DNA of 64,000 nucleotides from positions 1 through 64,000 of IMG/VR virus record IMGVR_UViG_3300032236_001100. One strand, 5' to 3'. This stretch comes from a virus. Below are positions 99 through 49,314 of this stretch, piece by piece (the stretch's first letter is position 1; each line of letters begins with the position of its first letter). The translations under genes and the position numbers were made by a program. The notes under the pieces were generated by a model, which was given only the letters and a program-made list of their open reading frames with translations, did not search any database and was not told the origin of the DNA.

Positions 99-207
99 AA
101 TTTTGGTATAGTGAACGAATGTTTAGTATGAAGTCCGCACTGGGAGCCTGGCCCCTATGGCCTCAATAGGGGTTGGCGGTAGGAAAAAAGCCGCGCCGGA
201 GCGCGCG

Positions 208-326
208 CCCCCCCCTATGATTTTTGGAAACCAAAAACGATACCTCCCCGTAGATTTTTGGGAATATCCAACCAGCCCCCCGTATGATTTTTGGGAAGAA
301 AATAGGAAATTTCTGCGTCGATTTTG
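208..326 (+). repeat. Phased C-tract/GATTTT(T) repeats, candidate packaging or terminus signal
   Basis: GATTTT at 219, 253, 286 and 320 (33-34 bp period); the first three follow a C-run and precede GG(G)AA; located downstream of terS. Confidence 0.7.
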
Positions 327-394
327 CTTGGGGTTCAATTAATCACTAGAATAGATTGCTTAACCCCTCATCGTCCCGCCACAGAGGAAATACA

Positions 395-760
395 ATGCCT
401 AAGCCCGAGTTGCCGATCATCAAATTGCCCCAAACAAACGCGCCAGACTATCGGTTCCTTGGCGAACCTATCATGCGTTACCCGGACGGTGACGCCACTG
501 AACCCGGTCAACCGGAACCAGAGGTGATATCCGAGTTGTTCATCACCCTGGATGGTACTTATGTGATATGGCTGAATATCAACGGCATGAAGAAAGCGCA
601 CCCGTTCCCGGACGCCAGGGCAGCGGCAAAGTATCTCGACGACTCGATCAGAGCGAAAGGGAAATTCATGCAAGAGCGAGTGCGCGGCATGGTCAGATAT
701 CTATACAACCAGATTCGTCGTGAAGTTCGTGATGCTCGGGATAAGCAGCGACTTCAATAA
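395..760 (+). CDS. Hypothetical protein
   Basis: ATG 395 preceded by AGAGGA; overlaps the 3' end of terS convergently. Confidence 0.55.
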   Translation: MPKPELPIIKLPQTNAPDYRFLGEPIMRYPDGDATEPGQPEPEVISELFITLDGTYVIWLNINGMKKAHPFPDARAAAKYLDDSIRAKGKFMQERVRGMVRYLYNQIRREVRDARDKQRLQ

Positions 761-1418
761 CCTGAGCTTCGCTATCGGGTTCCCAAGTCGTCCGGTAGCT
801 CACGTCAAGGGCTGTCTGTTCGATTGCTTCCGACTGGCTGGATACCGGCTTGCCGGAAGCAATCGCCCTTAACTGGGCCTCGCTGAGTTTTGATAGGTCA
901 AAGTTATTGACCTGAACGTCAGGCTTATCATCCCACAATCCGTGATATTTACCGAGTGTTTCGAGCGCACGAATACGGTCATAGAATTCGACCGAATCAC
1001 CTTGTTTAGTCGGCGTCACTTTCTTAACGAACGCCGCCGCGCCACACTCGAAAGCGCGTTGCCAGTCCCACGTTTTATACCCGCCATCGTGGATGATAAA
1101 GCACGATTGAATTGCTTCCATATCAGGGAATGCTTGATCGGTAATTGCCGCTAATACCTCACCCGGATTACCCGCGAAACACGAAGATAATTGATCAACC
1201 GCCTTAACTACGTGTGGTCGAGATAGCATATCGGCGGCAATCTGCCTCAACTCAGCGCGAGAGAGGCTTTCATCGGTAATTTTTGCCGCTGCCTTGATAG
1301 CCCCGGACGGTCCAGGTGTGGAAGCGTAGGCAACCACAAAGTCGGCTTCAAGCGGGTCAAGTTGCCTCAGTCTCGCCTTAGCAGACTCTGGCAAACTGGT
1401 GTTTTTTGTTCGTGCCAT
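693..1418 (-). CDS. terS: Terminase small subunit
   Basis: N-terminal FVVAY...AA...ML.RP.V HTH-like pattern, then YDRIRALETLGKYHGLW and DLSKLSEAQL tail typical of Terminase_2 proteins; same strand as the structural genes. Confidence 0.8.
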   Translation of the reverse strand: MARTKNTSLPESAKARLRQLDPLEADFVVAYASTPGPSGAIKAAAKITDESLSRAELRQIAADMLSRPHVVKAVDQLSSCFAGNPGEVLAAITDQAFPDMEAIQSCFIIHDGGYKTWDWQRAFECGAAAFVKKVTPTKQGDSVEFYDRIRALETLGKYHGLWDDKPDVQVNNFDLSKLSEAQLRAIASGKPVSSQSEAIEQTALDVSYRTTWEPDSEAQVIEVAAYPEHHELHDESGCIDI

Positions 1419-1532
1419 TTTCGGTACGTACTCCGATAAACAAGTAATTATTAGTACAGACTAAATATAACCATAACGCCGGGCTGACCTGCAACCAATT
1501 ATCAAGTTGCAAAAAAACTTTCTGGCAACCTA

Positions 1533-1561
1533 TTGACATTTATTGTCTTACTTGTTAAATT
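1533..1561 (+). promoter_or_regulatory. Sigma70-type early promoter P1
   Basis: TTGACA-17 bp-TAAATT. Confidence 0.75.
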
Positions 1562-1615
1562 AGACTTGTCGATTGATGAACGGCAAGTTGAAACCAACAC
1601 GAGAGGAACTAGTCG

Positions 1616-2038
1616 ATGCCTTACATTTACCTGGCTGATCTTTACTGTGACAAGTGCGGTGAAGCAATCCTTGACGATATCCACACTAACCGTCCACTGT
1701 CCGTTCCACCTAACCCTAGCGACGAATCAAGCTATGACTCGGACGAATACCCTAAGTACGCTTCTGGCGACGATGAAGCCGATTGTCCTCAGCACTGTGC
1801 TTGTGGTTCTGGTTGCCTTGCCGCTGAGGTGACTCCATCGGGGCGCAACGTGGGCTACTTCTTTATGAACGCCCTTACCAGTGAGGGTGAAGACTACGTA
1901 GTCCAGAGGTACCTCGAAGACCCGGCAAACGAAGTTGCACTTATGTGGTTCGATCACTATGCAAGCCAGGGCTACTCCAAAGTTGAGGAAGTCAAGAAAA
2001 TGAGTGACGATCTTCTAGAATTCCTCCTGGCCGACTGA
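1616..2038 (+). CDS. Acidic Cys-containing hypothetical protein
   Basis: CGAGAGGA RBS at 1600-1607; CxxC motifs; D/E-rich. Confidence 0.8.
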   Translation: MPYIYLADLYCDKCGEAILDDIHTNRPLSVPPNPSDESSYDSDEYPKYASGDDEADCPQHCACGSGCLAAEVTPSGRNVGYFFMNALTSEGEDYVVQRYLEDPANEVALMWFDHYASQGYSKVEEVKKMSDDLLEFLLAD

Positions 2039-2097
2039 CCGTTACCACTCCCCTACCCTTACCGCTGACCCGGTCCAACACGAGAGGATAGATAGTG

Positions 2098-2433
2098 ATG
2101 CCATTCATGACGCCCAAATACGATCACGGTGGTTACTATGCGGTCGAGACTACCCACGGCACCGAATGTGTCCCAGCAAGCCTAGTAGGGCTTCACGCGA
2201 CGATTGAAGACCTGATCGACTACACTGAGGGCAACCCTCACGAAGATCAGGATATTGAATTCAAGGCCGGTGTAGGCGTTCGACTGTCCGCACCTGGCTA
2301 TATGGATTGCACTGACTGGTCTTTCTTCGCCACTGAAGATGAGGCCCGCGAGTACGTCAAGGATACCTATGAAGTTGACCCCGATAGCGGTGAAGACCTC
2401 ACTGGCGACGATGAAACTGGCGACAATCAATAA
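2098..2433 (+). CDS. Acidic phage hypothetical protein (RLSAPGYMDCTDW motif)
   Basis: CGAGAGGA RBS at 2081-2088; strongly acidic. Confidence 0.8.
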   Translation: MPFMTPKYDHGGYYAVETTHGTECVPASLVGLHATIEDLIDYTEGNPHEDQDIEFKAGVGVRLSAPGYMDCTDWSFFATEDEAREYVKDTYEVDPDSGEDLTGDDETGDNQ

Positions 2434-2460
2434 AGTTGCCAAAAAGTTGCAACAAAGTTA

Positions 2461-2489
2461 TTGACAATAGTACGTACCGATATTACATT
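2461..2489 (+). promoter_or_regulatory. Sigma70-type early promoter P2
   Basis: TTGACA-17 bp-TACATT. Confidence 0.75.
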
Positions 2490-2543
2490 GTATAAGTCGA
2501 GTGAATGAACGCTCGACTTGACCCAACCCGAGAGGATAGAACG

Positions 2544-2846
2544 ATGGACTTTTTCCGACGATACGAGAACGAACCGGTTTCTACGCTCCTGGCCTTGCCC
2601 TGGAATACGGTCCAGATCGTCATTCCTAAGAACGATGGTAGCAAAATCTGCTACGGTGAAGAGCTTGCACCCGCTGATGCAACCAAAGAAGTCCTGGCTT
2701 ATTGGGTTGCCTATGCGAAAGAAAGAAACCTTGATATCGAGCTTTACTTCAACGCCTGTAAATGTCTTCTGTCAGACGGGCTGACGGTCAAGATCAACGA
2801 AGACCTGATCGTGACCCGTTGCGTAGAAGCGTGTCTGGGCGGTTAA
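2544..2846 (+). CDS. Hypothetical protein
   Basis: CGAGAGGA RBS at 2529-2536 places the start at ATG 2544. Confidence 0.75.
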   Translation: MDFFRRYENEPVSTLLALPWNTVQIVIPKNDGSKICYGEELAPADATKEVLAYWVAYAKERNLDIELYFNACKCLLSDGLTVKINEDLIVTRCVEACLGG

Positions 2847-2864
2847 TTTTCAAACTGCAACCCG

Positions 2865-2893
2865 TTGACAATTACTGTCCTACTTGTTAGAAT
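2865..2893 (+). promoter_or_regulatory. Sigma70-type early promoter P3
   Basis: TTGACA-17 bp-TAGAAT. Confidence 0.8.
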
Positions 2894-2968
2894 GTAATTC
2901 TAATCAACGTGGTAGCAAGTTCTGACCGGCTTGCTATCACCTTATTCTCAACCGAGAGGAATATGCTT

Positions 2969-3811
2969 ATGTGTGTGATCATCGACCGTCCCGCTGGTGT
3001 AGTTGTTACCAAGTCTATGGTTGAAGCCGCGACTACCCGCAATAGTGATGGCTGGGGTATTGCCATCACCCGCAAAGATGGCGTTATTGAGGTCGTTCGC
3101 GGTTTCGGTAGCAAAAAAGCGTTCAAGGCCGTTAAGAACGCTGGTGAATGCCCGTTCGTTTTTCACGCTCGACTGGCAACACACGGTGTTATCAACGTCG
3201 ATAACTGTCACCCGTTCACGATTCTTGACGGCCAGTATGTGGTGATTCACAACGGCATCGTTGATGCTGTCCCAGAAGTCTGGACAGAGTACAGTGATAC
3301 CGCCCACCTTGCCTACGGCATCATTGAGCCTATGCTCAACATGCACCCCGAGTGGTTCGACGATGGAACACTTGCCAAGTTCGTTGATGCCCTGGCTGGC
3401 TACTCCAAGATCGTGATTATCCGCGCTTCTGACGGCAAGCACTGCTGGGTTAACCGTCACTTGGGTGAAGACTATGACGGCCTCTGGATTTCTAACCGCA
3501 CTTGCGTTCCGGTAGTCGCCACGGTCGCCAGGATTGTTGACAAAGTACCCTCTGGCAAGAAAGCGACTAAGGGAACCGCTAAGAAGTCCGTTTCCTCTTC
3601 GTCACTTTGGGGCGACTGGGACTTCATGACTGAAGCCGAAAACGATGATCGTTGGTCCCCTGAACCAGTCGGAGACTACACCACGGTCAACCAGCGCGGA
3701 CTCTGGCAGATGAACGATCTTGCATATTGCACATATCACGATATTGTCGATCTGTGCAAGAATGATCCCGAGGGTATGGCGTCACTGATTCACGACTATC
3801 TCGATAACTGA
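2969..3811 (+). CDS. Class II glutamine amidotransferase (Ntn-hydrolase)
   Basis: Starts M-C-V-I-I (N-terminal Cys); NSDGWG, FHARLATHG, NCHPF, HNGI and SDT motifs; RBS at 2953-2960. Confidence 0.9.
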   Translation: MCVIIDRPAGVVVTKSMVEAATTRNSDGWGIAITRKDGVIEVVRGFGSKKAFKAVKNAGECPFVFHARLATHGVINVDNCHPFTILDGQYVVIHNGIVDAVPEVWTEYSDTAHLAYGIIEPMLNMHPEWFDDGTLAKFVDALAGYSKIVIIRASDGKHCWVNRHLGEDYDGLWISNRTCVPVVATVARIVDKVPSGKKATKGTAKKSVSSSSLWGDWDFMTEAENDDRWSPEPVGDYTTVNQRGLWQMNDLAYCTYHDIVDLCKNDPEGMASLIHDYLDN

Positions 3812-3892
3812 GGAACGCTGGCGGCTTAACTTTCGTCACGAGTCAGTCTGACCGCTGATTCGTGGCCTTTACCTAACCGAGAGGATAGAACG

Positions 3893-4342
3893 ATGGCTGA
3901 TTGCAAGATCATTGCACGGGGCATGCTTGGAGACCATCAGATTGAAGCCCCTGTGGTCAATCCAGGTGGGTGGTTCGGCCAAACGTGGCTGATTGAAATC
4001 GGTGGTTCATACTGGCCTAGCTACTTCTGTGTTGAGGCCGATACGCTTAGTGATGCCATTGATGAGTTTAGTGATTCACAGTATGGCCACCTGATTCATA
4101 TCAATGAATCGGACCTTGCAGACTACGGCATCGACACGGACGAACCTACGTGTTACTTCGCTGGCAACGATGGCAAGCCGTCTGACCTTACTAACATGGC
4201 TATCCACGGCATTGAGGGACGTAGGGGACGCAAGCCCTGGAATTGTCGCTACTTCGCCACTGAGGGTAAGCGTTGGCCACGATCTGGGGTTGACCCCTTG
4301 CGGGTTGACGTAGTGGTTGCCTTGACTGAGGAAAAAAGTTGA
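3893..4342 (+). CDS. Hypothetical protein
   Basis: CGAGAGGA RBS at 3878-3885. Confidence 0.8.
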   Translation: MADCKIIARGMLGDHQIEAPVVNPGGWFGQTWLIEIGGSYWPSYFCVEADTLSDAIDEFSDSQYGHLIHINESDLADYGIDTDEPTCYFAGNDGKPSDLTNMAIHGIEGRRGRKPWNCRYFATEGKRWPRSGVDPLRVDVVVALTEEKS

Positions 4343-4352
4343 CGGCAACCTA

Positions 4353-4381
4353 TTGACAACAATACGTACCCGTGGTACATT
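4353..4381 (+). promoter_or_regulatory. Sigma70-type early promoter P4 with adjacent operator-like palindrome GTTGACGGCAAC (4338-4349)
   Basis: TTGACA-17 bp-TACATT. Confidence 0.75.
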
Positions 4382-4429
4382 ATGTAAGTCGAGTGAATAA
4401 ACGACCTGAAACACGAGAGGATATCAAGG

Positions 4430-5125
4430 ATGCCCAAGTCAATCGAGATTAAGGTTTACACGCTGGCCGAACTGAAGTCGATGGCTGACGCCAAAGATGC
4501 AAGCAAGGCCCAGCGCAAGGCTTACGAGAAAGCACTTGAATGGGTGCGAGAGGGTCAAGCCGATGGCAATTACTGGCACGAAGAAATCATTGCAGACTGG
4601 ACTTACAACCTGAAGCGAATCGGCTTCACCGCCCCCAGAATTTTCTTCAGTGGTTTCGGTAGCCAGGGTGACGGGGCTTGCTTCACTTGCAACTCCATCG
4701 ACTTCGAGAAACTGGCCGTTGCCATCGCGGAAGCAAAAAGCAACCTGATGCCTGATCGTAGTGACGTGACTGAGTTTCTCTTGACCATTCGCAACTATAA
4801 GCCGTTCGTGTCCCGGCTTGCCAAATTGTGTGACGGTGGCTTCATTGAGATGGCAATCGAGCGCGGCACGTCACGTTACTGTCACGAGAAAACGGTAGAA
4901 TTGACCGTTGACGCTCATGAGTCGAGCAATACCCGCAAGACCGCCTTCAAGACTCGCCTTGAAGAGTTCAAGCAAGACCTTGACTGGTTTCGCGTCAGAC
5001 TGTGCCGCGCAATCTACCGTGACCTTGAAAGTTCCTACGACTACCTCATGAGCGACGAAGCATGCATTGGTATGGCTGAGGCCAACGATTACACGTTCAC
5101 CGAGTACGGTATGAGACTAGGCTAA
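4430..5125 (+). CDS. Conserved phage/plasmid early protein (FSGFxSQGDGA motif)
   Basis: VYTLAEL...FSGFGSQGDGACF...ANDYTFTEYG pattern; RBS at 4414-4421. Confidence 0.75.
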   Translation: MPKSIEIKVYTLAELKSMADAKDASKAQRKAYEKALEWVREGQADGNYWHEEIIADWTYNLKRIGFTAPRIFFSGFGSQGDGACFTCNSIDFEKLAVAIAEAKSNLMPDRSDVTEFLLTIRNYKPFVSRLAKLCDGGFIEMAIERGTSRYCHEKTVELTVDAHESSNTRKTAFKTRLEEFKQDLDWFRVRLCRAIYRDLESSYDYLMSDEACIGMAEANDYTFTEYGMRLG

Positions 5126-5219
5126 CGCCCATACCGCACCCGCAACCACTTACCCCGCTTCGTGATTTTTTGAGTTTCTTTACACTGCTCTGACCGGCAT
5201 TACCCGAGAGGATTGACCG

Positions 5220-5936
5220 ATGATGAATCTGCCTAAGATCGAAGACTTGTCTGGCGACACGATTGATAGCAAGCCCGTTGAATTCGATTTCAGCACGGGC
5301 TACGGTGAAACGTGGGATATCGTCCAAGAATACCCGGAAGACTGGACCGCTGAGGATTGCAAGCGGTTCCTTGACGATAATGGCCGCGACTATGACAGTG
5401 AGCTGACCCGCTACTTCCACGACCTTGAAGCCCTCATGCCTGATGATGCTACTGAGGAACTTGAATCGTCCGACACGCCTGAAGGTCTTATCAAGGCCCT
5501 TGACGCCAGGCTGATCGACCATACTGACGAAGATAGCAAGCACTGCACCGAGCTTCGCTACCTGGCTTCAGAAGTGCTGTCTAACAGCGACTACAACTTC
5601 CCAGTCATGAACTATATCTACCCGCTGCCAAGCGGTGACGCCGATAGGATTAGGGGCAAAGTCAACAATCTTGTTAGTACGACCTTGATTCACCGCCTGG
5701 ATACCGATACTTACGGACTGGCCTTAACTGGCGGCGGGATGGACTTCTCAATCGAAATCTGCAAGTCGTTCATCGCCCTTGGCTATATGCCGCCAGTCCA
5801 CTTCTGTGACCTGCCCCGTATGTCCGGGTTCCCGTCAAGCCGTTTCGACCGCTTGGTGATTGAGGCGTGCAAGGAATCGTGCCGTATCGCTATCAAGCGT
5901 ATCGGCTTCACTATCTACCGCCTAGAATCGTTCTGA
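5220..5936 (+). CDS. Acidic hypothetical protein (LALTGGGMD motif)
   Basis: RBS at 5205-5212; 238-aa ORF. Confidence 0.8.
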   Translation: MMNLPKIEDLSGDTIDSKPVEFDFSTGYGETWDIVQEYPEDWTAEDCKRFLDDNGRDYDSELTRYFHDLEALMPDDATEELESSDTPEGLIKALDARLIDHTDEDSKHCTELRYLASEVLSNSDYNFPVMNYIYPLPSGDADRIRGKVNNLVSTTLIHRLDTDTYGLALTGGGMDFSIEICKSFIALGYMPPVHFCDLPRMSGFPSSRFDRLVIEACKESCRIAIKRIGFTIYRLESF

Positions 5937-5989
5937 CCTAACCCTCTTATGTATCACCCCCCAGCCATAGATTTTTGGGAGCCAATACG

Positions 5990-6262
5990 ATGGATGCCAG
6001 CAAGCTACTGAATTCGGCCACTGCCGCCGCTGATGGCACGTATGTTCTGTATGCACCTCGCGCTAATCGCGCGGTCCTCATGGTGGCCAAAAACAACCGA
6101 GTCGCTATGGTGGCCGTTGTCGATGAAAGTTCCTATTACGGTTGGGCCGTTACTCGCGTTACTGGTTCCGAAGCGGAGCTAGTAGCTTCGACGGTCTTCT
6201 GTCAGCCATCTGGCCAACCAAGCGGAGTCGATCTTGCCAAAGTTGACGTGTTCAAGTTCTGA
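5990..6262 (+). CDS. Hypothetical protein
   Basis: GGAG upstream of ATG 5990; fills the gap between two junction motifs. Confidence 0.65.
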   Translation: MDASKLLNSATAAADGTYVLYAPRANRAVLMVAKNNRVAMVAVVDESSYYGWAVTRVTGSEAELVASTVFCQPSGQPSGVDLAKVDVFKF

Positions 6263-6340
6263 GTTAATTTCGGCAAGCAAACTGATTCTAAACCCGGCGT
6301 TTCCGGTACTGACCCCCGGACACGATTTTTGAGACTGAGC

Positions 6341-6358
6341 TGTCTCCGCGCGGAGACA
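6341..6358. repeat. Perfect palindrome TGTCTCCGCGCGGAGACA (copy 1 of 5)
   Basis: Same 16-bp core at 19343, 33130, 40780 and 55686. Confidence 0.9.
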
Positions 6359-6380
6359 AACAACCGAGAGGATATTGATC

Positions 6381-6836
6381 ATGCCTATCACTCGCAACGG
6401 CTTAGAACTTCACTGTTACGCGCCAGGTGACGGTGCCCTATCTTTTAGCTGGGTTGACATTAGAGAGGGAAACGTAGTCCCTGGAAAGGTAACGCCATCA
6501 CTTGCGCGTAGATTCCTGAAAAGTCGTGACGGACTGGGACGCCGCGACTATCACGTTGTGACAGTCAACGGTGAAGTCAGACTTGCACCACCTGTTAGGC
6601 GTGTCTGTGACGACGTGGTTCGTGTTAAATGGCATATGTCAACGCTATGCAAAAATTACGCAGACGTTCGTATCGAAGTCACTGGTGGGCCTGGCCCAGT
6701 CACGTTCTACCAGCTTAAAGCATGGACTATTGACGAGGATGGAACCAAAGTCGATTTCAAGCATATCTCTAGTTTGATGGCCATCGTTTTCTTTCTGAAC
6801 CACCAGCAACTCTACAAGGAACTGGGCCTGGCATAA
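6381..6836 (+). CDS. Hypothetical protein flanked by an exact 19-bp direct repeat
   Basis: RBS at 6365-6372; ACCCCCGGACACGATTTTT at 6312-6330 and 6856-6874. Confidence 0.75.
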   Translation: MPITRNGLELHCYAPGDGALSFSWVDIREGNVVPGKVTPSLARRFLKSRDGLGRRDYHVVTVNGEVRLAPPVRRVCDDVVRVKWHMSTLCKNYADVRIEVTGGPGPVTFYQLKAWTIDEDGTKVDFKHISSLMAIVFFLNHQQLYKELGLA

Positions 6837-6927
6837 AGCTCTAGCTACGCGAAACACCCCCGGACACGATTTTTCGAGATTGACTAAGCCGCTGACCCGG
6901 CCATTCCCAAACGAGAGGACCACGATC

Positions 6928-7338
6928 ATGACAGACACGATTCTTGAAGCGGTACTTGATTCCTATATCGAGTGCGCATTATGGACTACCACCGACGAAT
7001 CAGACGAACGTGGCGGCAACCCGCTTGACGATAACTATGGGCCGTCTGATCTTTCCCCAGAAGCCCTGGAAGCGATGCGCAAGGATTGTGCCAGGTTCCT
7101 CAGAGACAATAAGGTGATCCTTGAGACTTTTGACGAACTTTACCCTAACTGGTTCACCAAGTACTCGACTGAAGAAATGATCGGCCACGACTTCTGGCTG
7201 ACCCGCAACGGTCACGGAGCTGGCTTCTGGGACGGCGGCTGGCCCGGTATTACCGGCGATATTCTCACCCGGTCGTGCAAGGCGTTTGGCGAGTGCAACC
7301 TGTACGTGGGTGACGATAGCAAGATTTATGTTTGCTAA
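6928..7338 (+). CDS. Conserved phage hypothetical protein (GHDFWLTRNGHGAGFWD motif)
   Basis: RBS at 6912-6919; motif recognised from phage hypothetical proteins. Confidence 0.8.
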   Translation: MTDTILEAVLDSYIECALWTTTDESDERGGNPLDDNYGPSDLSPEALEAMRKDCARFLRDNKVILETFDELYPNWFTKYSTEEMIGHDFWLTRNGHGAGFWDGGWPGITGDILTRSCKAFGECNLYVGDDSKIYVC

Positions 7339-7411
7339 TATCGGCAGCGACTCAATAACCCCACCGCAAGATTTTTTAATCCGGGTTCACACAATACGAA
7401 AGGATACGACG

Positions 7412-7714
7412 ATGGCAAGAGTTAAGAAAGTCAAGCCGCTGAAAATGCCGGTAGCACTCAAAAACGCATTGTACAATGCGTCCAAAAATTGCACTGGAAG
7501 CATTGCGAGTGGCTGCAAGCATAGCATCGAAAGAAACCAAGCATACGGTCGAGGCATCATCGTTGGTTGCGTTAGCGCGTTAATGGCAACCGGCATGACG
7601 TTTGATGAAGCCTGGCTGTTCATTGGCGGCAATATCCCTACCGACTATGACGAGGCATGCGTCCCCGATACATGGCCGCTTCGCCAGCTTTCAAAGTCTC
7701 AACCCTCTCAGTGA
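7412..7714 (+). CDS. Hypothetical protein
   Basis: CGAAAGGA RBS at 7397-7404. Confidence 0.7.
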   Translation: MARVKKVKPLKMPVALKNALYNASKNCTGSIASGCKHSIERNQAYGRGIIVGCVSALMATGMTFDEAWLFIGGNIPTDYDEACVPDTWPLRQLSKSQPSQ

Positions 7715-7774
7715 TTTTTGGGAATCACTGTCGCCCGTTCCTGAACCGTTCGCCAGCAATCAAGGAAAATCACA

Positions 7775-8197
7775 ATGGCCTTCAAGTCGCCACGACTCAA
7801 AGATCGTAACGCATCCATTCCAGAAATTCTCGACCGCCTCTTTTCCGGCAAGCGAGTCGATGAAGTCACACTCCGAAACGCTAAAGCCGAGTACGACAAG
7901 CTCAAATTGATCAAGTCGGCTAAGACCACCAAGCCACTGACCGGTGAGGAACGCCAGCGTAGGGCGCGAGGCCGTCCAAAAAACTCCGAGCCAATGGCAC
8001 GCTTCAACATGAAGCTAACGCAATCCGAGCTGACGGCCTGGAATGATGCGTGCGATATATTGAAATACGAGTCGCTTTCCGCTATGGTCCGGTTCGCGGT
8101 GAACGGCCTCGTGAATAACGTGATCGAAACCAAGCATAATGTAATGCCACTCAATCAAGAAAACACCGGCCAGCAACCAACCACCCCCGCCCCATGA
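7775..8197 (+). CDS. Ribbon-helix-helix DNA-binding protein with RGRP hook
   Basis: RGRP...RFNMKL...W......SLSAMVRFAV, a beta-strand/helix/helix pattern. Confidence 0.7.
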   Translation: MAFKSPRLKDRNASIPEILDRLFSGKRVDEVTLRNAKAEYDKLKLIKSAKTTKPLTGEERQRRARGRPKNSEPMARFNMKLTQSELTAWNDACDILKYESLSAMVRFAVNGLVNNVIETKHNVMPLNQENTGQQPTTPAP

Positions 8198-8478
8198 TTT
8201 CCCAGATTAAAATTCGAGGTCGAACCTACCGCTTGGAAAAGATCAGCAGTAGGTTTATCCTCTCTTACGGCGAACGGTCCCACCGGGTTGATCAAGACGA
8301 CAACCAATGGTGCGGTTGGATATGCGATTGCGAGGACTTCGCCTACCGCCGCGAGGGCAATAAAGCTGACCCCTGCAAGCATATCTTAGCTTTGCACAAT
8401 CAGGGCTTCACAGTTCTGTCAGACAGATATCTCTTTCAGCCAGCCGATTCACAAGACACGAAAGGGCCGATAAAATGA
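8194..8478 (+). CDS. SWIM zinc-finger protein
   Basis: CDC-x13-CKH motif. Confidence 0.75.
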   Translation: MISQIKIRGRTYRLEKISSRFILSYGERSHRVDQDDNQWCGWICDCEDFAYRREGNKADPCKHILALHNQGFTVLSDRYLFQPADSQDTKGPIK

Positions 8479-9179
8479 CCGTTGCATCCATCGCACCGGA
8501 ACCATTGCTGAAAACGACCACAACCGCCATGACGCCGATCACCCAAGTGATAGAGCGTGTCCTCATGCGAGACACGCCAACCGATCACGAAGTCGAATCT
8601 GCCTGCAAAGAATTCAAGGCAATCGCACCGTTCGCTGTCCCAGACGGCAAGCTGGAAAAGCTGATCTCTTCATTGTCCAACGAAGATGAGTTCCCCAGCG
8701 ACTCGTTGGCCTCGCAAGCCCTACGCGAGTACGAGCAAGCCGTGATCCAGCGATACCTCGTAACGACCGGCAAGTCGTTCAAGCCGCCCCGCAAGGCCAA
8801 AGAAGCCGACCATAAGCCCAAACGGCCACGAGGCCGTCCCAGGCTTGACAAAGATATGAAAAATCTGCACTTTCGAGTCGAGACAAAACGCCTCGAAGCC
8901 TGGAAAGAAGTCAGTCGCAAGCTCGGTTTCAATAGCGTTTCCGCGATGGTTCGTCACGCTATGAACGGCTTAGTCGAATCTGGTCTGGTGATCTCAGAAG
9001 ACGAGCTTCACGAGGAACGTCAGCACCATGAAGACGTTATGACAGGCGCGTCTGTCAGGATCACCATAGGCGAATTAAAGTCATGGGAAGATTACTGTCA
9101 ACAATACGGCAACCGAATAGTTGCGGCTATCATCAGGATTGCCGCCGAACGCCTTACTCGGCCATTCGGAGATATGTAA
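8475..9179 (+). CDS. Tandem ribbon-helix-helix protein, paralogue of 7775-8197
   Basis: RGRP...LHFRV...W......SVSAMVRHAMNGLV plus a second RHH-like unit at the C-terminus. Confidence 0.7.
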   Translation: MTVASIAPEPLLKTTTTAMTPITQVIERVLMRDTPTDHEVESACKEFKAIAPFAVPDGKLEKLISSLSNEDEFPSDSLASQALREYEQAVIQRYLVTTGKSFKPPRKAKEADHKPKRPRGRPRLDKDMKNLHFRVETKRLEAWKEVSRKLGFNSVSAMVRHAMNGLVESGLVISEDELHEERQHHEDVMTGASVRITIGELKSWEDYCQQYGNRIVAAIIRIAAERLTRPFGDM

Positions 9180-9223
9180 AATCCAGAGAAAAAATGCAAT
9201 CAGAAAATAATTCCGGTTGCCAA

Positions 9224-9252
9224 TTGATTTTGTGTGCTACGTTTCGTATATT
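9224..9252 (+). promoter_or_regulatory. Sigma70-type promoter P5
   Basis: TTGATT-17 bp-TATATT. Confidence 0.55.
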
Positions 9253-9316
9253 AGATCTTGTCGAGAGCAAACACTGACCTGAACGCCTTCGACTCTAAAC
9301 CCGAGAGGAACATGAG

Positions 9317-10051
9317 ATGCAGAAATATGTGCCCTACGTCCGTGTGAGCAGCAAACGCCAGGGTGACAGCGGCCTGGGCCTGGAAGCTCAGGTCGAGGCC
9401 GTTAAGAAGTACGCTGAATCCAAGTCTGGTGAGATTGTCCGTGACCCGTTTGTCGAGGTCGAGACAGGCACCAAAGATCGTGTCGTGCTTCGTACTGCCC
9501 TGGCTTATGCACGTCGAACCAAGTCTACACTTGTGGTCGCCAAGCTCGACCGTATCGCCCGTGATATGAAGCTGTTCTGTGAGATCCGCGACTCTGGCAC
9601 CAACGTGGTCTTTCTTGACCTGCCAGACGTGCCGCCAGGCCCCGTTGGTCAGATCATGCTCACGATGCTTGCTGCATTCGCTGAGTTTGAAGCTAAGGTG
9701 ATTCAGGAGCGAACCAGAGCTGCGCTCGGAGTCCTCAAGAAACGTGGTGTTAAGCTCGGTGCCGCCCGTGAGGGTGCGCCTCGTCTCACTGACTCTGATC
9801 GTGCCGCTGGTCGCAAGGCCGCATCTGAGGCCATCTCTAATAAGGCTGTCAAGCGCAACGCTGACATTCTGCCGGTTGTCCTCGGTCTGCGTGAGGACGG
9901 CATGCCACTGAGTGAGATCGGTGAGTTCCTGGCTGAAAACTACGGTTCCCTCACTGCAAGCGGCCAGCCATTCGACGCTAGCCGTGTAGCCAAGCTGGTG
10001 CGAATGGCTAAGAAGGCGGGCGTCAAGCCAGCCATGCCGGTGCTTGCCTAA
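9317..10051 (+). CDS. Serine recombinase (resolvase/invertase family)
   Basis: YVRVS catalytic motif, LVVAKLDRIARD, AEFE..I.ERT..AL, GVKLG and a C-terminal HTH. Confidence 0.93.
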   Translation: MQKYVPYVRVSSKRQGDSGLGLEAQVEAVKKYAESKSGEIVRDPFVEVETGTKDRVVLRTALAYARRTKSTLVVAKLDRIARDMKLFCEIRDSGTNVVFLDLPDVPPGPVGQIMLTMLAAFAEFEAKVIQERTRAALGVLKKRGVKLGAAREGAPRLTDSDRAAGRKAASEAISNKAVKRNADILPVVLGLREDGMPLSEIGEFLAENYGSLTASGQPFDASRVAKLVRMAKKAGVKPAMPVLA

Positions 10052-10157
10052 TACGGAATGCAAGCCGCCTCAAATTATGTGGCGGCTCACTTTTAACCCC
10101 GCTCAAGATTTTTTGAATCGCCCTGCCCTGACCGGCAGCAACCGAGAGGATAATATC

Positions 10158-10583
10158 ATGACTCTGAAAGAATGGTCCGAGCTATCGCAGATTCACGCTA
10201 CGTCACCGAACGAACGTGGCAACGTATCTTTGACGATTAGCCCTACTCACTTTCACCATCGGTCGCTGTATCACCTGGATGACTACTACGTCGATTTCAT
10301 GAACGGGCCAGTTGTATGGATGAAACCCAAACTAAAAGCCGAGATCACTGTGTGGGCACCGCTTGATCACGCCACAATGCAAACGCCTCTGATCGGTCGT
10401 TGGGAAATCATGGTTGCTGGCCCATGCGATGCCGAGGCCGTAGCCAGAACGCTCATGCGAGATAAAGGTGGACATTCTGCATACTATGTCATGCCGGATC
10501 ACTGGAACCAAAACATCCGATCCAACTGGCTAACAAGCAACGGCTGGCTTTCTGGCCTTCGCGCCATACCACCCACCCAGTGA
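10158..10583 (+). CDS. Hypothetical protein
   Basis: RBS at 10143-10150. Confidence 0.75.
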   Translation: MTLKEWSELSQIHATSPNERGNVSLTISPTHFHHRSLYHLDDYYVDFMNGPVVWMKPKLKAEITVWAPLDHATMQTPLIGRWEIMVAGPCDAEAVARTLMRDKGGHSAYYVMPDHWNQNIRSNWLTSNGWLSGLRAIPPTQ

Positions 10584-10612
10584 TTTTCCCAACCCACAAC
10601 GAGGCCCAACCC

Positions 10613-11056
10613 ATGATTGCTCAGACCCGAATCCTGCCCGACTTCAACGCAATACGATCCATAGCCGAGGAGATCGGCTCAGACCTCGCTCACGAGATTC
10701 TGGAGCGTGACCTGTACGTTTCCTGGCCGGGACTCGACCAGGCCAACAGCGAGCCTCTGACGGCCCTGGGGCTCAAGCCCACCGATCCTGAGTGGTTCGA
10801 GGCCGAGAGGCTTGCCGCCAGGATGTTCACGGCTGGCCTGCTGATCTTGGATATCCAGGCTGAACTAGACAGGCTGGGTTGGAGCAGGACCACCGGCAAC
10901 CCCGATGGTCTGGCGGTTGTGCCACTCAGTCACGGCAAGGTGCAGGTTCTTGGCCTGCAAGACCAGGCGACACAAGACGCCAGGATCTTGCTCTCCAGGC
11001 TCAAGGCCGTCCGTACCGGCGTGCCCTACTCAATCACGTTCATCACCGGACTCTAA
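10613..11056 (+). CDS. Hypothetical two-domain protein (GLKP..W domain + ELDRLGW domain)
   Basis: Shares segments with the next two genes and with 33168-33668. Confidence 0.75.
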   Translation: MIAQTRILPDFNAIRSIAEEIGSDLAHEILERDLYVSWPGLDQANSEPLTALGLKPTDPEWFEAERLAARMFTAGLLILDIQAELDRLGWSRTTGNPDGLAVVPLSHGKVQVLGLQDQATQDARILLSRLKAVRTGVPYSITFITGL

Positions 11057-11110
11057 CAAGACCCCCCCCGACGTAATTTTTTGAAGTCGATTTACCAAGG
11101 AGATTTGACA

Positions 11111-11881
11111 ATGGCCAGCAGCAAGATGATCAAAGCAATCGAAGCGGAACTTGAGCGGCTTGACTGGAACGGGTCCGAGACCAACGTGTCCGGGTTCGTT
11201 ATCACCGACTACGAAGAAATGGTAGGCACATTGCCACCAAACTTCGTCGTGCTGTACGACGATCACATCCGGTTCGTTGATGATGCTGACAAGATCCTGA
11301 ACGCACTCAAGGCAGCATCGCCCGACGACGAATATGGGACCGGCCTGGACGATATCCAGCAGGATTCGGACTACCTAGCCGCTCGTCGCCAGGAACTCGT
11401 GCAGATCCTGGGGGTTATCACAACGAAGGACCATGCCGGTGTTCACTTCACCACGAACTACACCAGAGACGTACTGGAGAGCCTGGAGTGGGTTGGATGG
11501 ATCAAGATTCATAAGCCAGTCCACGAGGCCACTGGCCTGGAGTACAGCGAGGAGAACTGGTCCCTGGAAGTCACGCCCGAAGGCCAGAAGGTCGTGGACG
11601 ATGAGTACCAGGAACCCAAAGAAGAGGACGAGCGTATCTCGCTTTGCATCGACAACGGCCCTGGCGGTTACGTTGTGTCGAATCCCGACAGCATTCCGCG
11701 CCAGATCATTCACGTCATGTCACCCGATGGGCCTATGATCACGGGAAGTACCGACAGCCACTCGGTCGTGGCCGAATGTTGGGAAGCTATTAACGGACTC
11801 ACGGGCTGGAAGAGCGAAGACGAAGTCACGGTCGATCATGATCGCCAGACGATCTTCGTGTCCGGTCGCAAGCTGTCCTGA
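11111..11881 (+). CDS. Acidic hypothetical protein with N-terminal ELxRLxW domain
   Basis: AGGAG RBS; paralogous N-terminus. Confidence 0.8.
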   Translation: MASSKMIKAIEAELERLDWNGSETNVSGFVITDYEEMVGTLPPNFVVLYDDHIRFVDDADKILNALKAASPDDEYGTGLDDIQQDSDYLAARRQELVQILGVITTKDHAGVHFTTNYTRDVLESLEWVGWIKIHKPVHEATGLEYSEENWSLEVTPEGQKVVDDEYQEPKEEDERISLCIDNGPGGYVVSNPDSIPRQIIHVMSPDGPMITGSTDSHSVVAECWEAINGLTGWKSEDEVTVDHDRQTIFVSGRKLS

Positions 11882-11965
11882 GCTAACACGGGAGCCTGGT
11901 CTGAACAGGCTCCATACCCCCCCCTTCGGGATTTTTTGGGATCAAAACAGCACGGAGAATTTACG

Positions 11966-12472
11966 TTGAACGCATGTCTTGCAGCGATCAAGTCTGAACT
12001 CGACCGCTTAGGTTGGTCTCGCTCTGAGTCCAACCCCTCTGGATTCGTTGTGACCGACGAGGTTGACCTTGGGGCCACGGCTAACGGTATCACCTATAGC
12101 CACCCAGGAGACCTTCGATGGGTCCACGTTTACAACGACAGAATGGACAGATACGGCCACGCAGAACATATTCTGAGGATCTTGAAAGAACTTTCCGAAT
12201 ATGAGCATGTATTCGATTTCATCTCAGCGACAGCACCCCAAAGCCCAGCCAGGATTGGCAAGGCTTTGGGCTTCACGCTGGCAGAAATCAGGATGCGAAG
12301 CCTCATCAAGAACCGGCCAACCTTGGATCAAATGCTTCACGACTGCGAATGCAAGCATTTGATTCGCTTTGGGCTCAAGCCGGGAACACGAGCCTGGGAA
12401 GTCTTTGAGTCTTCAGCAAGACAAGCATTCGAGACAAGTGTGGCTCAACAAAATGAGGAGCAACGCCAATGA
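11966..12472 (+). CDS. Hypothetical two-domain protein (ELDRLGW domain + GLKP..W domain)
   Basis: GGAG upstream of TTG 11966; paralogous segments. Confidence 0.7.
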   Translation: MNACLAAIKSELDRLGWSRSESNPSGFVVTDEVDLGATANGITYSHPGDLRWVHVYNDRMDRYGHAEHILRILKELSEYEHVFDFISATAPQSPARIGKALGFTLAEIRMRSLIKNRPTLDQMLHDCECKHLIRFGLKPGTRAWEVFESSARQAFETSVAQQNEEQRQ

Positions 12473-12714
12473 TATGGACTCCAGCTTCGCAGCCGCCTCC
12501 ACTGCACAAAGATGAGAACCTGCTTGATACGCTGACATCGGACGATGTTTTGGCTGTAGACAAGTGGGGAAAAATTTTTGTCGCCTACATGCAGTCGGAC
12601 GAATATTACGGGACTCGCTGGCGAACAACATGCTCCGAAGGATGGATTCTGAATGAAGGAACTGTCACACACTGGATGCCACTACCACCCTTGCCAGAAA
12701 AGGACAAACCATGA
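12469..12714 (+). CDS. DUF551-like protein
   Basis: SDDVL...VTHWMPLP. Confidence 0.8.
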   Translation: MIWTPASQPPPLHKDENLLDTLTSDDVLAVDKWGKIFVAYMQSDEYYGTRWRTTCSEGWILNEGTVTHWMPLPPLPEKDKP

Positions 12715-13160
12715 ACTGGACCCCAGCCCTGATCTTGCCATCACTAAGCGAAGCCATAGGCCACCCTCGCGTGCTGGTCTCGGACGATGTGCTTGCAATC
12801 AACAATCAGCGAGAACAGTTCGTCGCATTTGTTGAGAAGAGAGAGGGCTTGGACCCACGGTGGATGTCAGGCAGGCGCGAGCTTGGCGACATCGAATACT
12901 GGATGCCCTTGCCTGCGGCACCAGACGCAGAGAAGCAAGAGCCGATGGGCAGCGTATACGTCGAACACGTTCACGTTACACAGGAGCAATTCAGCAAAGA
13001 GCCAGCTGTCTACTTTGACAAGATCGGCATCGACGGATCGACCGTGACCGTCCACAACGAAGATGGCGTCATCGGCCACCTCATTCCAGACTGGATGCTT
13101 CGCCAGATCGTGCGAGAAAATCTGGGCTTGCCTCGCAAGAACTCCGATATGTTAGTGTAA
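12711..13160 (+). CDS. DUF551-like protein with C-terminal extension
   Basis: SDDVL...IEYWMPLP; tandem paralogue of the previous gene. Confidence 0.75.
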   Translation: MNWTPALILPSLSEAIGHPRVLVSDDVLAINNQREQFVAFVEKREGLDPRWMSGRRELGDIEYWMPLPAAPDAEKQEPMGSVYVEHVHVTQEQFSKEPAVYFDKIGIDGSTVTVHNEDGVIGHLIPDWMLRQIVRENLGLPRKNSDMLV

Positions 13161-13211
13161 GGTTGACATCAACTATGCCGCTGACCCGGCACTAACCGAG
13201 AGGATTGCAGG

Positions 13212-13421
13212 ATGCACGCGACACAAGGCCACAGTAGGCTTACCCTGGCGTTTCTGACTCTGGCTGCATGTTTTACCGCTGGATGTCAGACGGCCCCGCA
13301 GAGGCCACGCTGGGAGACGACAGTGGCCATCCGGTACGAAGGCCACCCAGACGCTGAAGACAAGGTAGTTGCCGAACTCTCGATGAAAACCTCGAACCCA
13401 GTGACCGATGCCAAGAAATGA
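13212..13421 (+). CDS. Small putative lipoprotein
   Basis: Hydrophobic signal ending TAGC (lipobox-like); RBS at 13197-13204. Confidence 0.6.
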   Translation: MHATQGHSRLTLAFLTLAACFTAGCQTAPQRPRWETTVAIRYEGHPDAEDKVVAELSMKTSNPVTDAKK

Positions 13422-13487
13422 TGAACAGGTTGCCACCAGGAGCTAAAATACTTGGTGGCAACTTTGTTTTGGCATGGGAGGATTGAG

Positions 13488-13904
13488 ATGGAGTGGATCG
13501 AGGTCAAGCGGAAGTTACTCGGATTCAATATCCGCAAAGGTGAGAACAGCAGGGACAAAGGCGGCATCTACGCTGTTTTTTCGATTGCCGAACACTGCGA
13601 GGAAACCGGCGAATACCGGAACGCGATCCGCAACGGACCCACCGTGCGCTATCACGATCACGGCTGGGATGCCTTCGTGGCCCTGGCTGGCCCCTATATC
13701 GCACTGGCCGAGAATCCAGGCATGTTGGCCGATGAACGGCCTGTGGTTGCACCGTCGCCACACTCGTTCTGGAAGAAGCGACCAGGCAGACGGCCCAAGG
13801 CGATGATCGGCACCGACCAGGCTGAAGAGGGCACGGAGTCAGAAGAAGGCCAATATCGTTTTAGCTCATCGGGTATTGACTTGGGGCTCCCAAGATTGCC
13901 GTGA
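13488..13904 (+). CDS. Hypothetical protein
   Basis: GGAGG upstream of ATG 13488. Confidence 0.6.
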   Translation: MEWIEVKRKLLGFNIRKGENSRDKGGIYAVFSIAEHCEETGEYRNAIRNGPTVRYHDHGWDAFVALAGPYIALAENPGMLADERPVVAPSPHSFWKKRPGRRPKAMIGTDQAEEGTESEEGQYRFSSSGIDLGLPRLP

Positions 13905-13992
13905 GCGCATAAAAGTGCCCGGCAGGTCTGACCACCTGCCGGGCGGCACAACCCCAGGCTACGAGCCTGAAACCGAGAGGAGAGATGTGCAG

Positions 13993-14283
13993 ATGTATTC
14001 TACACCCTCAGATAAACCAAGTCAACGAGCAGGAAGCCATGACGTGAAGTGTAATGACCCGTATTGCCCTGAATGCCGGTCCCTGGCGGTATCGAACCTG
14101 ATCGACCGGATCGCCAACCTGATGTTGACCGACGAAGAAGCCGAAGAATTCTGGAAAGCTGGGCTCAACGCCATTACGCAAACCAGGGTCAAGGCACCGG
14201 CTGTCCTTGGCACCCAGGCCAAAGCGCAACCCAAGGCACCCAGACCCTGGTTCAAAGACAATCCCATGTGGCGTAACGGTTAA
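13993..14283 (+). CDS. Hypothetical protein with CxxxxCxxC
   Basis: CGAGAGGA at 13974-13981; start could also be GTG 13987. Confidence 0.6.
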   Translation: MYSTPSDKPSQRAGSHDVKCNDPYCPECRSLAVSNLIDRIANLMLTDEEAEEFWKAGLNAITQTRVKAPAVLGTQAKAQPKAPRPWFKDNPMWRNG

Positions 14284-14735
14284 TGCGAGCTGAATTCAGC
14301 CGAGACGACGTTGCCGTCTTTGCCCAGTGTTAGCCTCGCCTGTTTGTCGCCCGAAAATTCCTGGCTCTCGCCAATGATCCGGTAATCCATGTCGATCAGC
14401 ACCTGGATCGCATCGTGGTAGCTCAGGCCCTGGAGCCAGTAACCAGGCTCAACAGGCTGGGCAGCATTCGAGATGCTCTGGCGAGCTTCCTCGATGATCT
14501 TCTCGGCTTGATCTTGAAGCGAACCGTCTTCGTCCTGCTCTTCGCTTTCCTGTGGTTGCAGCGACTCGTGCAGCAGGCAAGCCATCAACACAGGTGGATC
14601 AAATACATTCGTTCGCCAGACAACAACTTGCTCGCCATCATGGTCCGCGCAGTAGGCTCGGGTTCCATCATCGTTGGTGATAACAAAGATTCGCCTGCCG
14701 TCCGTCAGATCAAAATAATCGACACTATTGGGCAT
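14280..14735 (-). CDS. Acidic hypothetical protein
   Basis: ORF convergent with the early region. Confidence 0.65.
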   Translation of the reverse strand: MPNSVDYFDLTDGRRIFVITNDDGTRAYCADHDGEQVVVWRTNVFDPPVLMACLLHESLQPQESEEQDEDGSLQDQAEKIIEEARQSISNAAQPVEPGYWLQGLSYHDAIQVLIDMDYRIIGESQEFSGDKQARLTLGKDGNVVSAEFSSH

Positions 14736-14747
14736 GAGCTTGGGTCC

Positions 14748-14775
14748 AAAAAAAAGAAGGCCCATCCTTGGGCCT
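14748..14775 (-). terminator. Intrinsic terminator
   Basis: AGGCCCA/TGGGCCT stem followed by a T-run on the minus strand. Confidence 0.65.
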
Positions 14776-14786
14776 GAGAGGGCATA

Positions 14787-14990
14787 TCAGGCAGTAGGTT
14801 CGGCAGGTGGCGCGACAGCCGCCGAGAGCTGGCTCACAATCGAGTCGATTGCGGCAATCTCGTCAGCCGTGGGCTCAACTCCCACCTTGGACTGCAACTC
14901 GGTGTTCTTCGCTCGCAGATCGCTAATCAAAGCGATAGCGGCACTGACCACGGTTGCCAACTGAGCTTCTTTTTCAGAAAGAACAGACAT
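14787..14990 (-). CDS. Small coiled-coil protein
   Basis: AAGGAG RBS; last gene of the putative lysis operon. Confidence 0.65.
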   Translation of the reverse strand: MSVLSEKEAQLATVVSAAIALISDLRAKNTELQSKVGVEPTADEIAAIDSIVSQLSAAVAPPAEPTA

Positions 14991-15005
14991 CGAGAACTCC
15001 TTCGG

Positions 15006-16609: not shown

Positions 16610-17355
16610 GGATGGATTCCCTCCGCGAGTTCCAGCCACCACTCCCCAAAGATTTTCGGGTCTTGGTTCGCCTTGGTCTTCCACAGCTCGGAGATCCGAG
16701 GCTGGATGGCATTCATCACGTTCTTGGCGAACTTGTCCCAGTCAGGGATCTGATGGAGCGCAGCGGCATGCGCATCCATGAATTCCTTGACCGATCCGTA
16801 CTGGCCTGCCACGCCATTGTCGCCCAACGCTTTCAAGCACTCGCCCAAAGCCATGCGCTGGTCAGTGGTCAGGTTGTTATCCAGAACAGCCTGGGCAGCG
16901 ATCTCACGGAACCCCCACTTGGATGGAGCCGGTGGAACAACCGGCGTAGGAGGCGTTGGCGTAGGGGCAGGATTGGGGTTCGGTGCCGGTGGGTTCGGGT
17001 TCGGTGCCGGTGGAGGAGTCGGTGGAACCGGGAACGCATCCTCACGCACCGCCACGAGCTTCATGGCGCGACTGAGCTTGGTCCCAGCCACAATCCATGC
17101 CGTCACACGATACTGGCCAGGAGGGGCAGTCCAGACCGCTTCAGACCCGGTCGCATTGAGTTCCTGCACATCCACGGCAAACGCCGGGTTTGTCAGGCTG
17201 ATAATCTCCCACTCCGTATCGGTTGCCTCCATGCCAGACACGCTGGACCGGATCAGCCGGTAAGGCGGCGAGGCCGACGCCCCCTCGATGGTGGCATCTG
17301 CCAGGGCAGCAACGGATAGGAAAAGGCCAAAGGTCAGGCCCAGGAAACGACCCAT
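16606..17355 (-). CDS. Secreted protein with proline-rich linker
   Basis: Signal peptide (VAALA-DA); PPAPNPNPP linker between two domains. Confidence 0.75.
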   Translation of the reverse strand: MGRFLGLTFGLFLSVAALADATIEGASASPPYRLIRSSVSGMEATDTEWEIISLTNPAFAVDVQELNATGSEAVWTAPPGQYRVTAWIVAGTKLSRAMKLVAVREDAFPVPPTPPPAPNPNPPAPNPNPAPTPTPPTPVVPPAPSKWGFREIAAQAVLDNNLTTDQRMALGECLKALGDNGVAGQYGSVKEFMDAHAAALHQIPDWDKFAKNVMNAIQPRISELWKTKANQDPKIFGEWWLELAEGIHP

Positions 17356-42649: not shown

Positions 42650-42732
42650 GCAATCAACCTACGAAAACACCGAAAAGAATCCACCGTATTATTATAGCCA
42701 GAAAGTACACATGTATATCTAGTGATGCGAAG

Positions 42733-49262: not shown

Positions 49263-49314
49263 GGTTTTCCTTTGGTATCAGTTTATTATAGCAAGAATAT
49301 ACGCATGCGAAACA

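Follow-up and report, generated by a model that had tools for sequence, protein, structure and literature searches.

A polar bipartite motif at gene junctions of a planctomycete phage: a candidate compact promoter at sites of single-gene gain and loss

The accessory block and its junction motif

The window analysed here comprises 64,000 nucleotides of phage DNA, the first 64 kb of the 84,755-bp IMG/VR record IMGVR_UViG_3300032236_001100 (G000; CheckV completeness 58%), and its early region carries a short polar motif, CCCc-N6-GATTTTT, at the junctions of a block of small genes, most of which belong to no Pfam or PHROG family. A longer version of this phage has 96,989 bp, and about 12 kb of the genome lies outside the sequence analysed. 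Since relatives of the portal protein (43-59% identity) sit in genomes of Isosphaeraceae and other Planctomycetota, the host, judged by these matches, belongs to the Planctomycetota. The phage is temperate and carries a tyrosine integrase gene, two sigma-like genes, each with regions 2 and 4, and genes for an Erf-like annealing protein and a sliding clamp, with TerL, portal and capsid genes located at 67-75 kb.

The motif is present in 14 copies, all on the plus strand and spanning 208-11937, of which 13 are strong and one is weak; GATTTTT or a variant of it starts at 219, 253, 286, 5164, 5970, 6324, 6868, 7370, 7713, 8196 (GATTTCC, weak), 10107, 10582 (GATTTTC), 11075 (AATTTTT) and 11930. GATTTTT itself occurs 13 times on the plus strand, 11 of these within 219-11930. 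The pattern CCCNNNNNNNGATTTT has 11 matches in the window, every one on the plus strand, against 0.49 +/- 0.72 expected from 100 dinucleotide shuffles, and a C-tract followed 3-9 nt on by [GA]ATTTT has none on the minus strand of the whole record. When the record was scanned with a profile derived from 32 sites, the 14 plus-strand copies were recovered together with one stray plus-strand site at 16651 and one weak minus-strand site, against a mean of 2.3 in shuffled sequence (both strands combined), i.e., the last two sites, which lie in the ~70 kb beyond 208-11937, are at chance level.

Alignment on the G of GATTTTT, using 26 sites drawn from three contigs, shows a fixed register, with C at positions -10, -9 and -8 in 22, 26 and 24 of the 26 sites, G0 (A in two sites), A1 and T2-T6 nearly invariant, and A frequent at -12. 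The motif is a rigid 17-base bipartite element (CCC, seven bases, GATTTTT) whose two blocks lie about 12 bp apart on one helix face. Position counts reveal no dyad symmetry around any centre, and no additional conserved block was found upstream of CCC.

Between 5125 and 11966 the motif occupies 11 of 13 consecutive junctions, counting the copy at 8196, which is doubtful because its GAT overlaps an ATGA stop/start and its T-run is missing, and which is probably not functional. In the copies at 7713 and 10582 the motif is merged into the last codons and the TGA stop, and an exact 19-bp direct repeat, ACCCCCGGACACGATTTTT, surrounds one gene (6312-6330 and 6856-6874). An earlier, sequence-only reading of this DNA had listed the motif positions, their restriction to the plus strand, the 11 of 13 junctions, the copies built into stop codons, the 19-bp repeat and an upstream cluster near 208-297, which proves to be three tandem copies at 208-292; all of these observations hold. 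Its consensus, CCCC-N(5-7) followed by GATTTTT, captured the motif itself, but the variable spacer gives way to the rigid N6 element.

The window start is an assembly break within 19-bp repeats in contigs of the source run, and because an 11.5-kb contig joins at this break it is not a genome end, nor is the trio at 208-292 terminal. The repeats at the window start (1-95) form five tandem 19-bp units with the palindrome ACTGGCCAGT in each, and the same place in a 90% identical relative is occupied by a different repeat unit, GGGCTAGCCCC...; they look like iterons or a partition site co-evolving with its own binding protein.

Promoters, leaders and transcription units

Canonical sigma-70-type promoters (TTGACA-N17-TAnAnT) precede genes 1616, 2544, 2963, 4430 and 9317 of the same phage, and the motif is therefore not the host's standard promoter. 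In several of these promoters the first transcribed bases are conserved (TCGAGTGAAT...) and GTTGC...GCAAC operator-like palindromes lie upstream; the promoters are probably repressor-controlled immediate-early ones. Among the 21 non-overlapping plus-strand junctions of the block, 11 carry the motif, 6 a sigma-70-type promoter (five clear, the sixth, at 13422-13449, weaker) and the remaining 4 carry neither; no junction combines the two, a mutual exclusion with a hypergeometric p = 0.004 that has to be read against the spatial clustering of both classes. A sigma-70 scan calls none of the motif sites and, past the terminator at 10063-10094, gives no sigma-70-like promoter for seven genes.

The position of the motif follows the downstream unit and not the end of the upstream gene. 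Copies stand at the head of the three-gene unit 7775-9179 and of the unit 11966-13421, and the motif is absent 3' of the last genes of multi-gene units (9179/9317 and 13160/13212, the latter with a full leader), as well as from internal junctions with the same leader (2038/2098, 3811/3893 and 13160/13212). Sigma-70 promoters and motif copies alike lead into one type of leader, in which cGAGAGGA follows a CUGACC-loop hairpin, and the distance to leader hairpin and start codon is 43-53 nt from the end of the T-run (four sites) versus 42-63 nt from the predicted sigma-70 start. No regular hairpin precedes the T-run: the 45 nt upstream fold to z ~0 at 12 of 14 sites, and strong hairpins stand before just two copies, those at 10107 and 11930. 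Coordinates are collected in Table 1.

Table 1. Motif copies and associated features in the window
Feature	Position	Strand	Remarks
Motif copy 1, tandem trio	208-225	+	C8 tract adjoining minus-strand terminator hairpin 192-207; identical in the X2 relative except 208 C>A
Motif copy 2, tandem trio	243-259	+	No difference listed in the X2 relative
Motif copy 3, tandem trio	276-292	+	102 nt upstream of ATG at 395
Motif, first of array	5153-5171	+	Before gene 5220-5936; after sigma-70-driven gene 4430-5125
Motif	5957-5976	+	Before gene 5990-6262; within segment absent from the X2 relative
Motif	6313-6330	+	Before gene 6381-6836; in 19-bp repeat 6312-6330; right end of X2 deletion 11 nt downstream (6341)
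Motif	6857-6874	+	Before gene 6928-7338; in 19-bp repeat 6856-6874; 314 nt added in X2 between 6853 and 6858
Motif	7359-7377	+	Before gene 7412-7714
Motif	7703-7719	+	Over TGA stop of 7412-7714; heads three-gene unit 7775-9179
Weak, doubtful copy (GATTTCC)	8184-8200	+	ATGA stop/start overlap; profile score 12.6 versus 18-26 in other copies
Motif	10097-10114	+	Before gene 10158-10583; directly after canonical terminator
Motif (GATTTTC)	10572-10587	+	Over TGA stop; 24 nt before ATG at 10613
Motif AATTTTTT, C8 tract	11062-11082	+	Before gene 11111-11881
Motif, C8 tract	11917-11937	+	Heads unit 11966-13421; after strong hairpin 11891-11913
Canonical hairpin and T-run terminator	10063-10094	+	3' of serine recombinase gene, immediately 5' of a motif copy; -15 kcal/mol, z = -3.5
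Segment of motif, gene 5990-6262 and motif	5944-6340	+	Replaced by 100 other letters in ~90% identical relative
Small serine recombinase gene within array	9317-10051	+	PF00239 at 1e-27; own sigma-70-type promoter TTGATT-17-TATATT (9224-9252); no motif upstream
Sigma-70-type promoters	1533-1561, 2461-2489, 2865-2893, 4353-4381, 9224-9252	+	TTGACA-17-TAnAnT; motif absent from all

The leader extends beyond these two classes of junction. Across 2060-14000 many start codons are preceded by the hairpin, with its invariant CUGACC loop, and by cGAGAGGA, irrespective of any promoter or motif, and a related sequence, TTCTGACTGGAGAT, occurs in one of the contigs described below (L012); this is a separate translation-level element common to distant phages.

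Related contigs, host genomes and gene gain and loss

The motif is found in the same register at gene junctions of three other contigs (L012, L165 and L327), each with one to three proteins at most in common with this phage (34-49% identical), at GC contents of 47-63%. L012, a 3.8-kb metagenome contig of 47% GC whose only protein in common with the phage is ArdA-like (34% identity), displays it at 9 of 9 consecutive junctions, each time followed by TTCTGACTGGAGAT and a start codon, and in L165, of the same lineage, an array of this kind ends opposite a replication module. L327, a 9.9-kb contig of 63% GC, lies in the Isosphaeraceae metagenome-assembled genome (MAG) that carries the closest portal (G002; 59%), and has ten CCCC-N7-GATTTTY-GGGAA copies directly after stop codons; a GATase-like protein (49%), a serine recombinase (43%) and a phosphoesterase (46%) are common to it and the phage, and in both the recombinase gene has the motif downstream and none upstream.

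Among 160 loci of the ArdA-like family in IMG/VR and metagenomes the motif is present in L012 only, and three DNA patterns searched in the same collections yielded L165 as the sole further array. A search with the GATase-like alignment gave three contigs, all unrelated; two array proteins had no IMG/VR or metagenome matches; among cultured-phage records neither the array nor L012 had a relative, and L165 had distant polymerase matches only; and a literature search for the motif returned nothing relevant. The motif is not enriched in Isosphaeraceae genomes, an array being present in 1 of 121 only (G002), so that the signal is a property of a set of phages and not of their host. Host-wide use was considered and rejected, since five Isosphaeraceae genomes have 3-12 matches that are scattered and stand in random contexts.

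The contigs L085 and L086 (146-149 kb, IMG/VR), which the ArdA-like gene marks as more distant relatives, have repeated sigma-70 promoter/operator cassettes at the equivalent places, and one promoter per early gene is thus a normal design in this group of contigs. The cassette itself, cTTGACAATGGGGCAGCATTGTGGTATGAT, is highly conserved, in 7-10 copies before early genes, and its spacer contains an inverted repeat ACAATG...CATTGT.

A 36.5-kb contig from another run of the same study (X2), about 90% identical and covering 107-15000, allows breakpoints to be placed, as the sequence-only reading had proposed; another relative, P0002, is a 92-kb contig with 83% identity. The X2 relative is without 5944-6340 (Table 1), a loss of one gene and one motif copy, and its 314 extra nt are inserted exactly at the 5' edge of the motif and 19-bp repeat. 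It is also without the first of two adjacent DUF551 paralogues (pair 12469-13160; lost 12481-12722), and here the breakpoint has 5 nt of microhomology, lies between the paralogous gene starts and has no motif. Two of the three gene-content indels, i.e., one gene loss and one insertion, are thus located at motif copies, both flanking the gene that the exact 19-bp repeat encloses. Gain and loss of single genes at motif copies is therefore real. Three copies contain C8 homopolymer tracts, which are prone to slippage (208-215, 11062-11069 and 11917-11924), and position 208 is A in the relative.

A candidate promoter and rival readings

A promoter, which the sequence-only reading had not listed, is the best supported explanation of these observations, given that the motif and the sigma-70-type promoters share the same slot and exclude each other, and that the motif heads operons and follows a terminator. 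It is further supported by the tandem trio upstream of gene 395, which is kept in the 90% identical relative (one difference in 209-318) while its flanks show many differences. We tentatively propose a compact promoter outside the sigma-70 class, with its start at the G after the T-run, a proposal that falls somewhat short of probable. It would drive the block of small accessory genes of this temperate planctomycete phage with CCCc (about -17 to -14) and GATTTTY (about -7 to -1) as its conserved blocks, and transcription would begin at the G after the T-run, often as GGGAA or GRRA. In L327 a Shine-Dalgarno sequence lies 4-5 nt past the T-run at three sites and one ATG follows GGG by 3 nt, distances that would leave the G after the T-run as the only possible start and would exclude GATTTT as a -10 hexamer of the sigma-70 type. 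Together, motif, leader and ribosome-binding site would turn each gene or short operon that follows into an independently expressed cassette, read by an unrecognised phage-specified polymerase or specificity factor, or by a redirected host RNA polymerase. Since the same ~18-50 nt recur at every junction, the copies may double as substrates of homologous exchange, by which single genes would be added or removed. That the machinery is altogether undescribed, either a phage RNA polymerase or specificity factor without detectable similarity to known families or a new redirection of the planctomycete RNA polymerase, and is common to several otherwise unrelated uncultured phage lineages, is conceivable but doubtful.

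Several known promoter and binding-site types were considered and rejected: the -7 box of Bacteroidetes (strong Shine-Dalgarno sequences are present, and the final G is missing in L012), the geometries of sigma-54, sigma-32 and extracytoplasmic function (ECF) sigma factors (the spacing or a required -35 is not conserved), and an IHF site or N4-type hairpin promoter (a 7-bp hairpin exists at site 219 only).

A number of observations weigh against a promoter. No phage RNA polymerase was detected in the 85 kb or in the MAG, in a search that was weak, its PF00940 control being silent and ~12 kb of the genome missing; for a T7-like polymerase in particular, PF00940 gave no match in G000 or G002, though the control gave none anywhere. 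No DFDGD-type motif was found, the proteins of the replication block include nothing polymerase-like, two immediate-early proteins match only unnamed viral clusters in the atlas, and beyond the few proteins noted above none is common to the motif-bearing contigs. The sigma-like genes are poor candidates for the reader, because regions 2 and 4 of their products misfit a 12-bp bipartite site and because identity to the counterparts in G002 is no more than 24-32%. In L012 and L327 the motif comes 0-6 nt after the upstream stop codon, one L327 copy stands upstream of a sigma-70 promoter, and in 6 of the 10 L327 copies a CCCC/GGGG mini-hairpin could form before the U-run, which would suit a terminator or RNA element. 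The bases past the T-run are pyrimidine-rich in L012, not G-rich.

Of the readings set against the promoter, those of a stoperator, an RNA-processing signal and a pause site fit the distribution of the motif less well. Polar protein-binding sites like the stoperators of phage L5, at which a two-module phage DNA-binding protein would block or modulate RNA polymerase across the accessory block, would explain why the site is asymmetric, rigid and bipartite with both blocks on one helix face, why it sits in short intergenic spaces or over stop codons and is always co-oriented with transcription, and why it is tandem at 208-292, an arrangement suited to cooperative binding. L5-type repressors are indeed monomers with two domains that bind 13-mers in an orientation-dependent manner (PMC9283540), and the stoperators of cluster A mycobacteriophages (L5 gp71; PMC9283540) resemble the motif in asymmetry, short intergenic location and orientation along transcription. 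However, stoperators occur throughout the genome, in its early as well as its late regions, and have the same sequence as the early-promoter operator, whereas the 14 sites of the motif lie within 12 kb, as a single 7-kb block and the trio, the lytic genes of the other ~70 kb having no copy, and the sigma-70 promoters bear different, palindromic operator-like sites and never the motif. In addition, no candidate binder is common to the four contigs, and the genes past the terminator at 10063-10094 would lack a promoter, so that we consider this reading unlikely. A signal acting in polycistronic mRNA, i.e., a site of endonucleolytic processing or of a stability or translation factor comparable to the RNase III sites between T7 early genes, would account for the placement of the motif between stop codon and Shine-Dalgarno sequence, where it is at times the whole spacer, and for its link to a conserved leader (CUGACC loop or CUGACU, then ribosome-binding site). 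GA/UUUU also resembles AU-rich single-strand cleavage contexts. Three tandem copies with no gene between them would nevertheless be pointless as processing sites, transcription would rarely reach a copy directly behind a terminator, and internal junctions with the same leader have no motif, all of which makes such a signal quite improbable.

It is about as improbable that the motif is a hairpin-independent or factor-dependent terminator, or an insulator, ending each transcript and perhaps overridden by a phage antiterminator. L012 and L327 do have a T-run of 5-7 just past the stop codon, 6 of 10 L327 copies have a 4-bp G-C hairpin before AUUUUC, one L327 copy stands ahead of a sigma-70 promoter, and triple tandem copies are usual for terminators. 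However, neither this phage nor L012 has a hairpin, the 4-bp stems of the L327 lineage being the only ones, and the G+C-rich hairpin with U-run of an intrinsic terminator is not seen; the motif is missing at real unit ends (9179 and 13160) and duplicates the canonical terminator at 10063-10094, and eleven terminators in series without promoters between them would silence the block. The sequence-only reading had also suggested recombination sites that add or remove single-gene cassettes, with a serine recombinase in the array, as well as terminase or translocation signals. Nothing supports the latter, and of the former the gain and loss at the motif is borne out by the X2 relative, but not the mechanism. 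Dedicated sites of the array's recombinase, in an integron-like cassette system, would agree with the single-gene indels, with the exact repeat flanking one gene and with the homologous serine recombinase within the arrays of both this phage and L327; yet the motif has neither dyad symmetry nor a central-dinucleotide architecture, the L012 and L165 sequences analysed contain no recombinase, and the third indel (12480-12723), between paralogous gene starts, has no motif at all. Intergenic breakpoints are also expected for any indel that spares genes. Homologous exchange between repeats is the more likely route, and the simpler one because an Erf-like annealing protein could exchange short repeats and because serine recombinase sites are usually dyad-symmetric, and a dedicated recombinase system appears very improbable.

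Comparison with known systems places the motif in a familiar kind but a non-standard sequence class. The promoter-early stem-loops (PeSLs) of T4-type phages are repeated promoter-terminator cassettes that mediate modular shuffling (PMC2839356, PMC4122927); like the motif, they are short regulatory repeats, uniformly oriented, that separate the small ORFan genes of a hyperplastic block, clustered in a variable region (here 208-11937) and located at break points of indels between close relatives, T4 relatives differing by single-gene insertions, deletions and replacements. In contrast, a PeSL comprises a strong sigma-70-like promoter with -35 and -10 hexamers and a terminator stem-loop, whereas the motif has no such hexamers and no regular stem-loop, and stands beside ordinary sigma-70 promoters. 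The promoters of T7/T3/SP6-type single-subunit RNA polymerases are also compact (~17-20 bp), co-oriented, with an A/T-rich stretch before a G start, and fit very short spacers; this geometry of compact element and purine start agrees with the predicted start in this phage and L327, but L012 has no G-rich start, the motif has about 11 conserved positions in two blocks, the phage is temperate with integrase and sigma-like genes, and the weak search gave no such polymerase gene. In integron attC arrays, too, a recurring polar site stands between single-gene units, and units are gained and lost, but attC sites are imperfect palindromes (57-141 bp) on which a tyrosine integrase acts, unlike a 17-nt non-palindromic motif with a resolvase-type recombinase (PF00239) in its array. 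The crossover sites of serine recombinases (res, hix, att) have two inverted half-sites around a central dinucleotide, and the motif has no dyad symmetry. What is new here is the sequence class, the repeated regulatory cassette in a hyperplastic block being known.

Gene regulation in Planctomycetota phages is almost unknown, and the motif is a sharply defined, phage-specific signal across lineages of 47-63% GC, marking what would be a gene class regulated apart from sigma-70-driven and late genes. Next to the T4 PeSLs, it would be a second and independent case in which a regulatory repeat acts as a seam for accessory-gene shuffling, with one gene loss and one insertion caught at the seam in a natural relative. 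If a novel polymerase or specificity factor turned out to read it, the 17-nt element would serve directly as an orthogonal promoter in a phylum whose genetic engineering is difficult.

Further features were noted elsewhere in the record. A TerS-like protein (693-1418, minus strand; PHROG 51, 7e-9) is encoded over 70 kb away from the gene of the large terminase, convergent with the plus-strand gene 395-760 with a 67-nt overlap. The large terminase (71593-74688 of the record, 7593-10688 of L246, minus strand) has 1031 aa, of which only the N-terminal ~170 and C-terminal ~250 residues match the family, and the gap between these matches suggests an intein or other large insertion. A small gene at 13212-13421 has a lipoprotein-type signal (LTLAAC) and an upstream palindrome, GTTGACATCAAC, and is a possible lysogenic-conversion or exclusion gene. 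Lastly, gCTATAATAA, a perfect TATAAT with no -35, lies upstream of three late-region genes (42650-42700 and 49263-49310 of the window, and 82552-82610 of the record on the minus strand) and may define a late promoter class.

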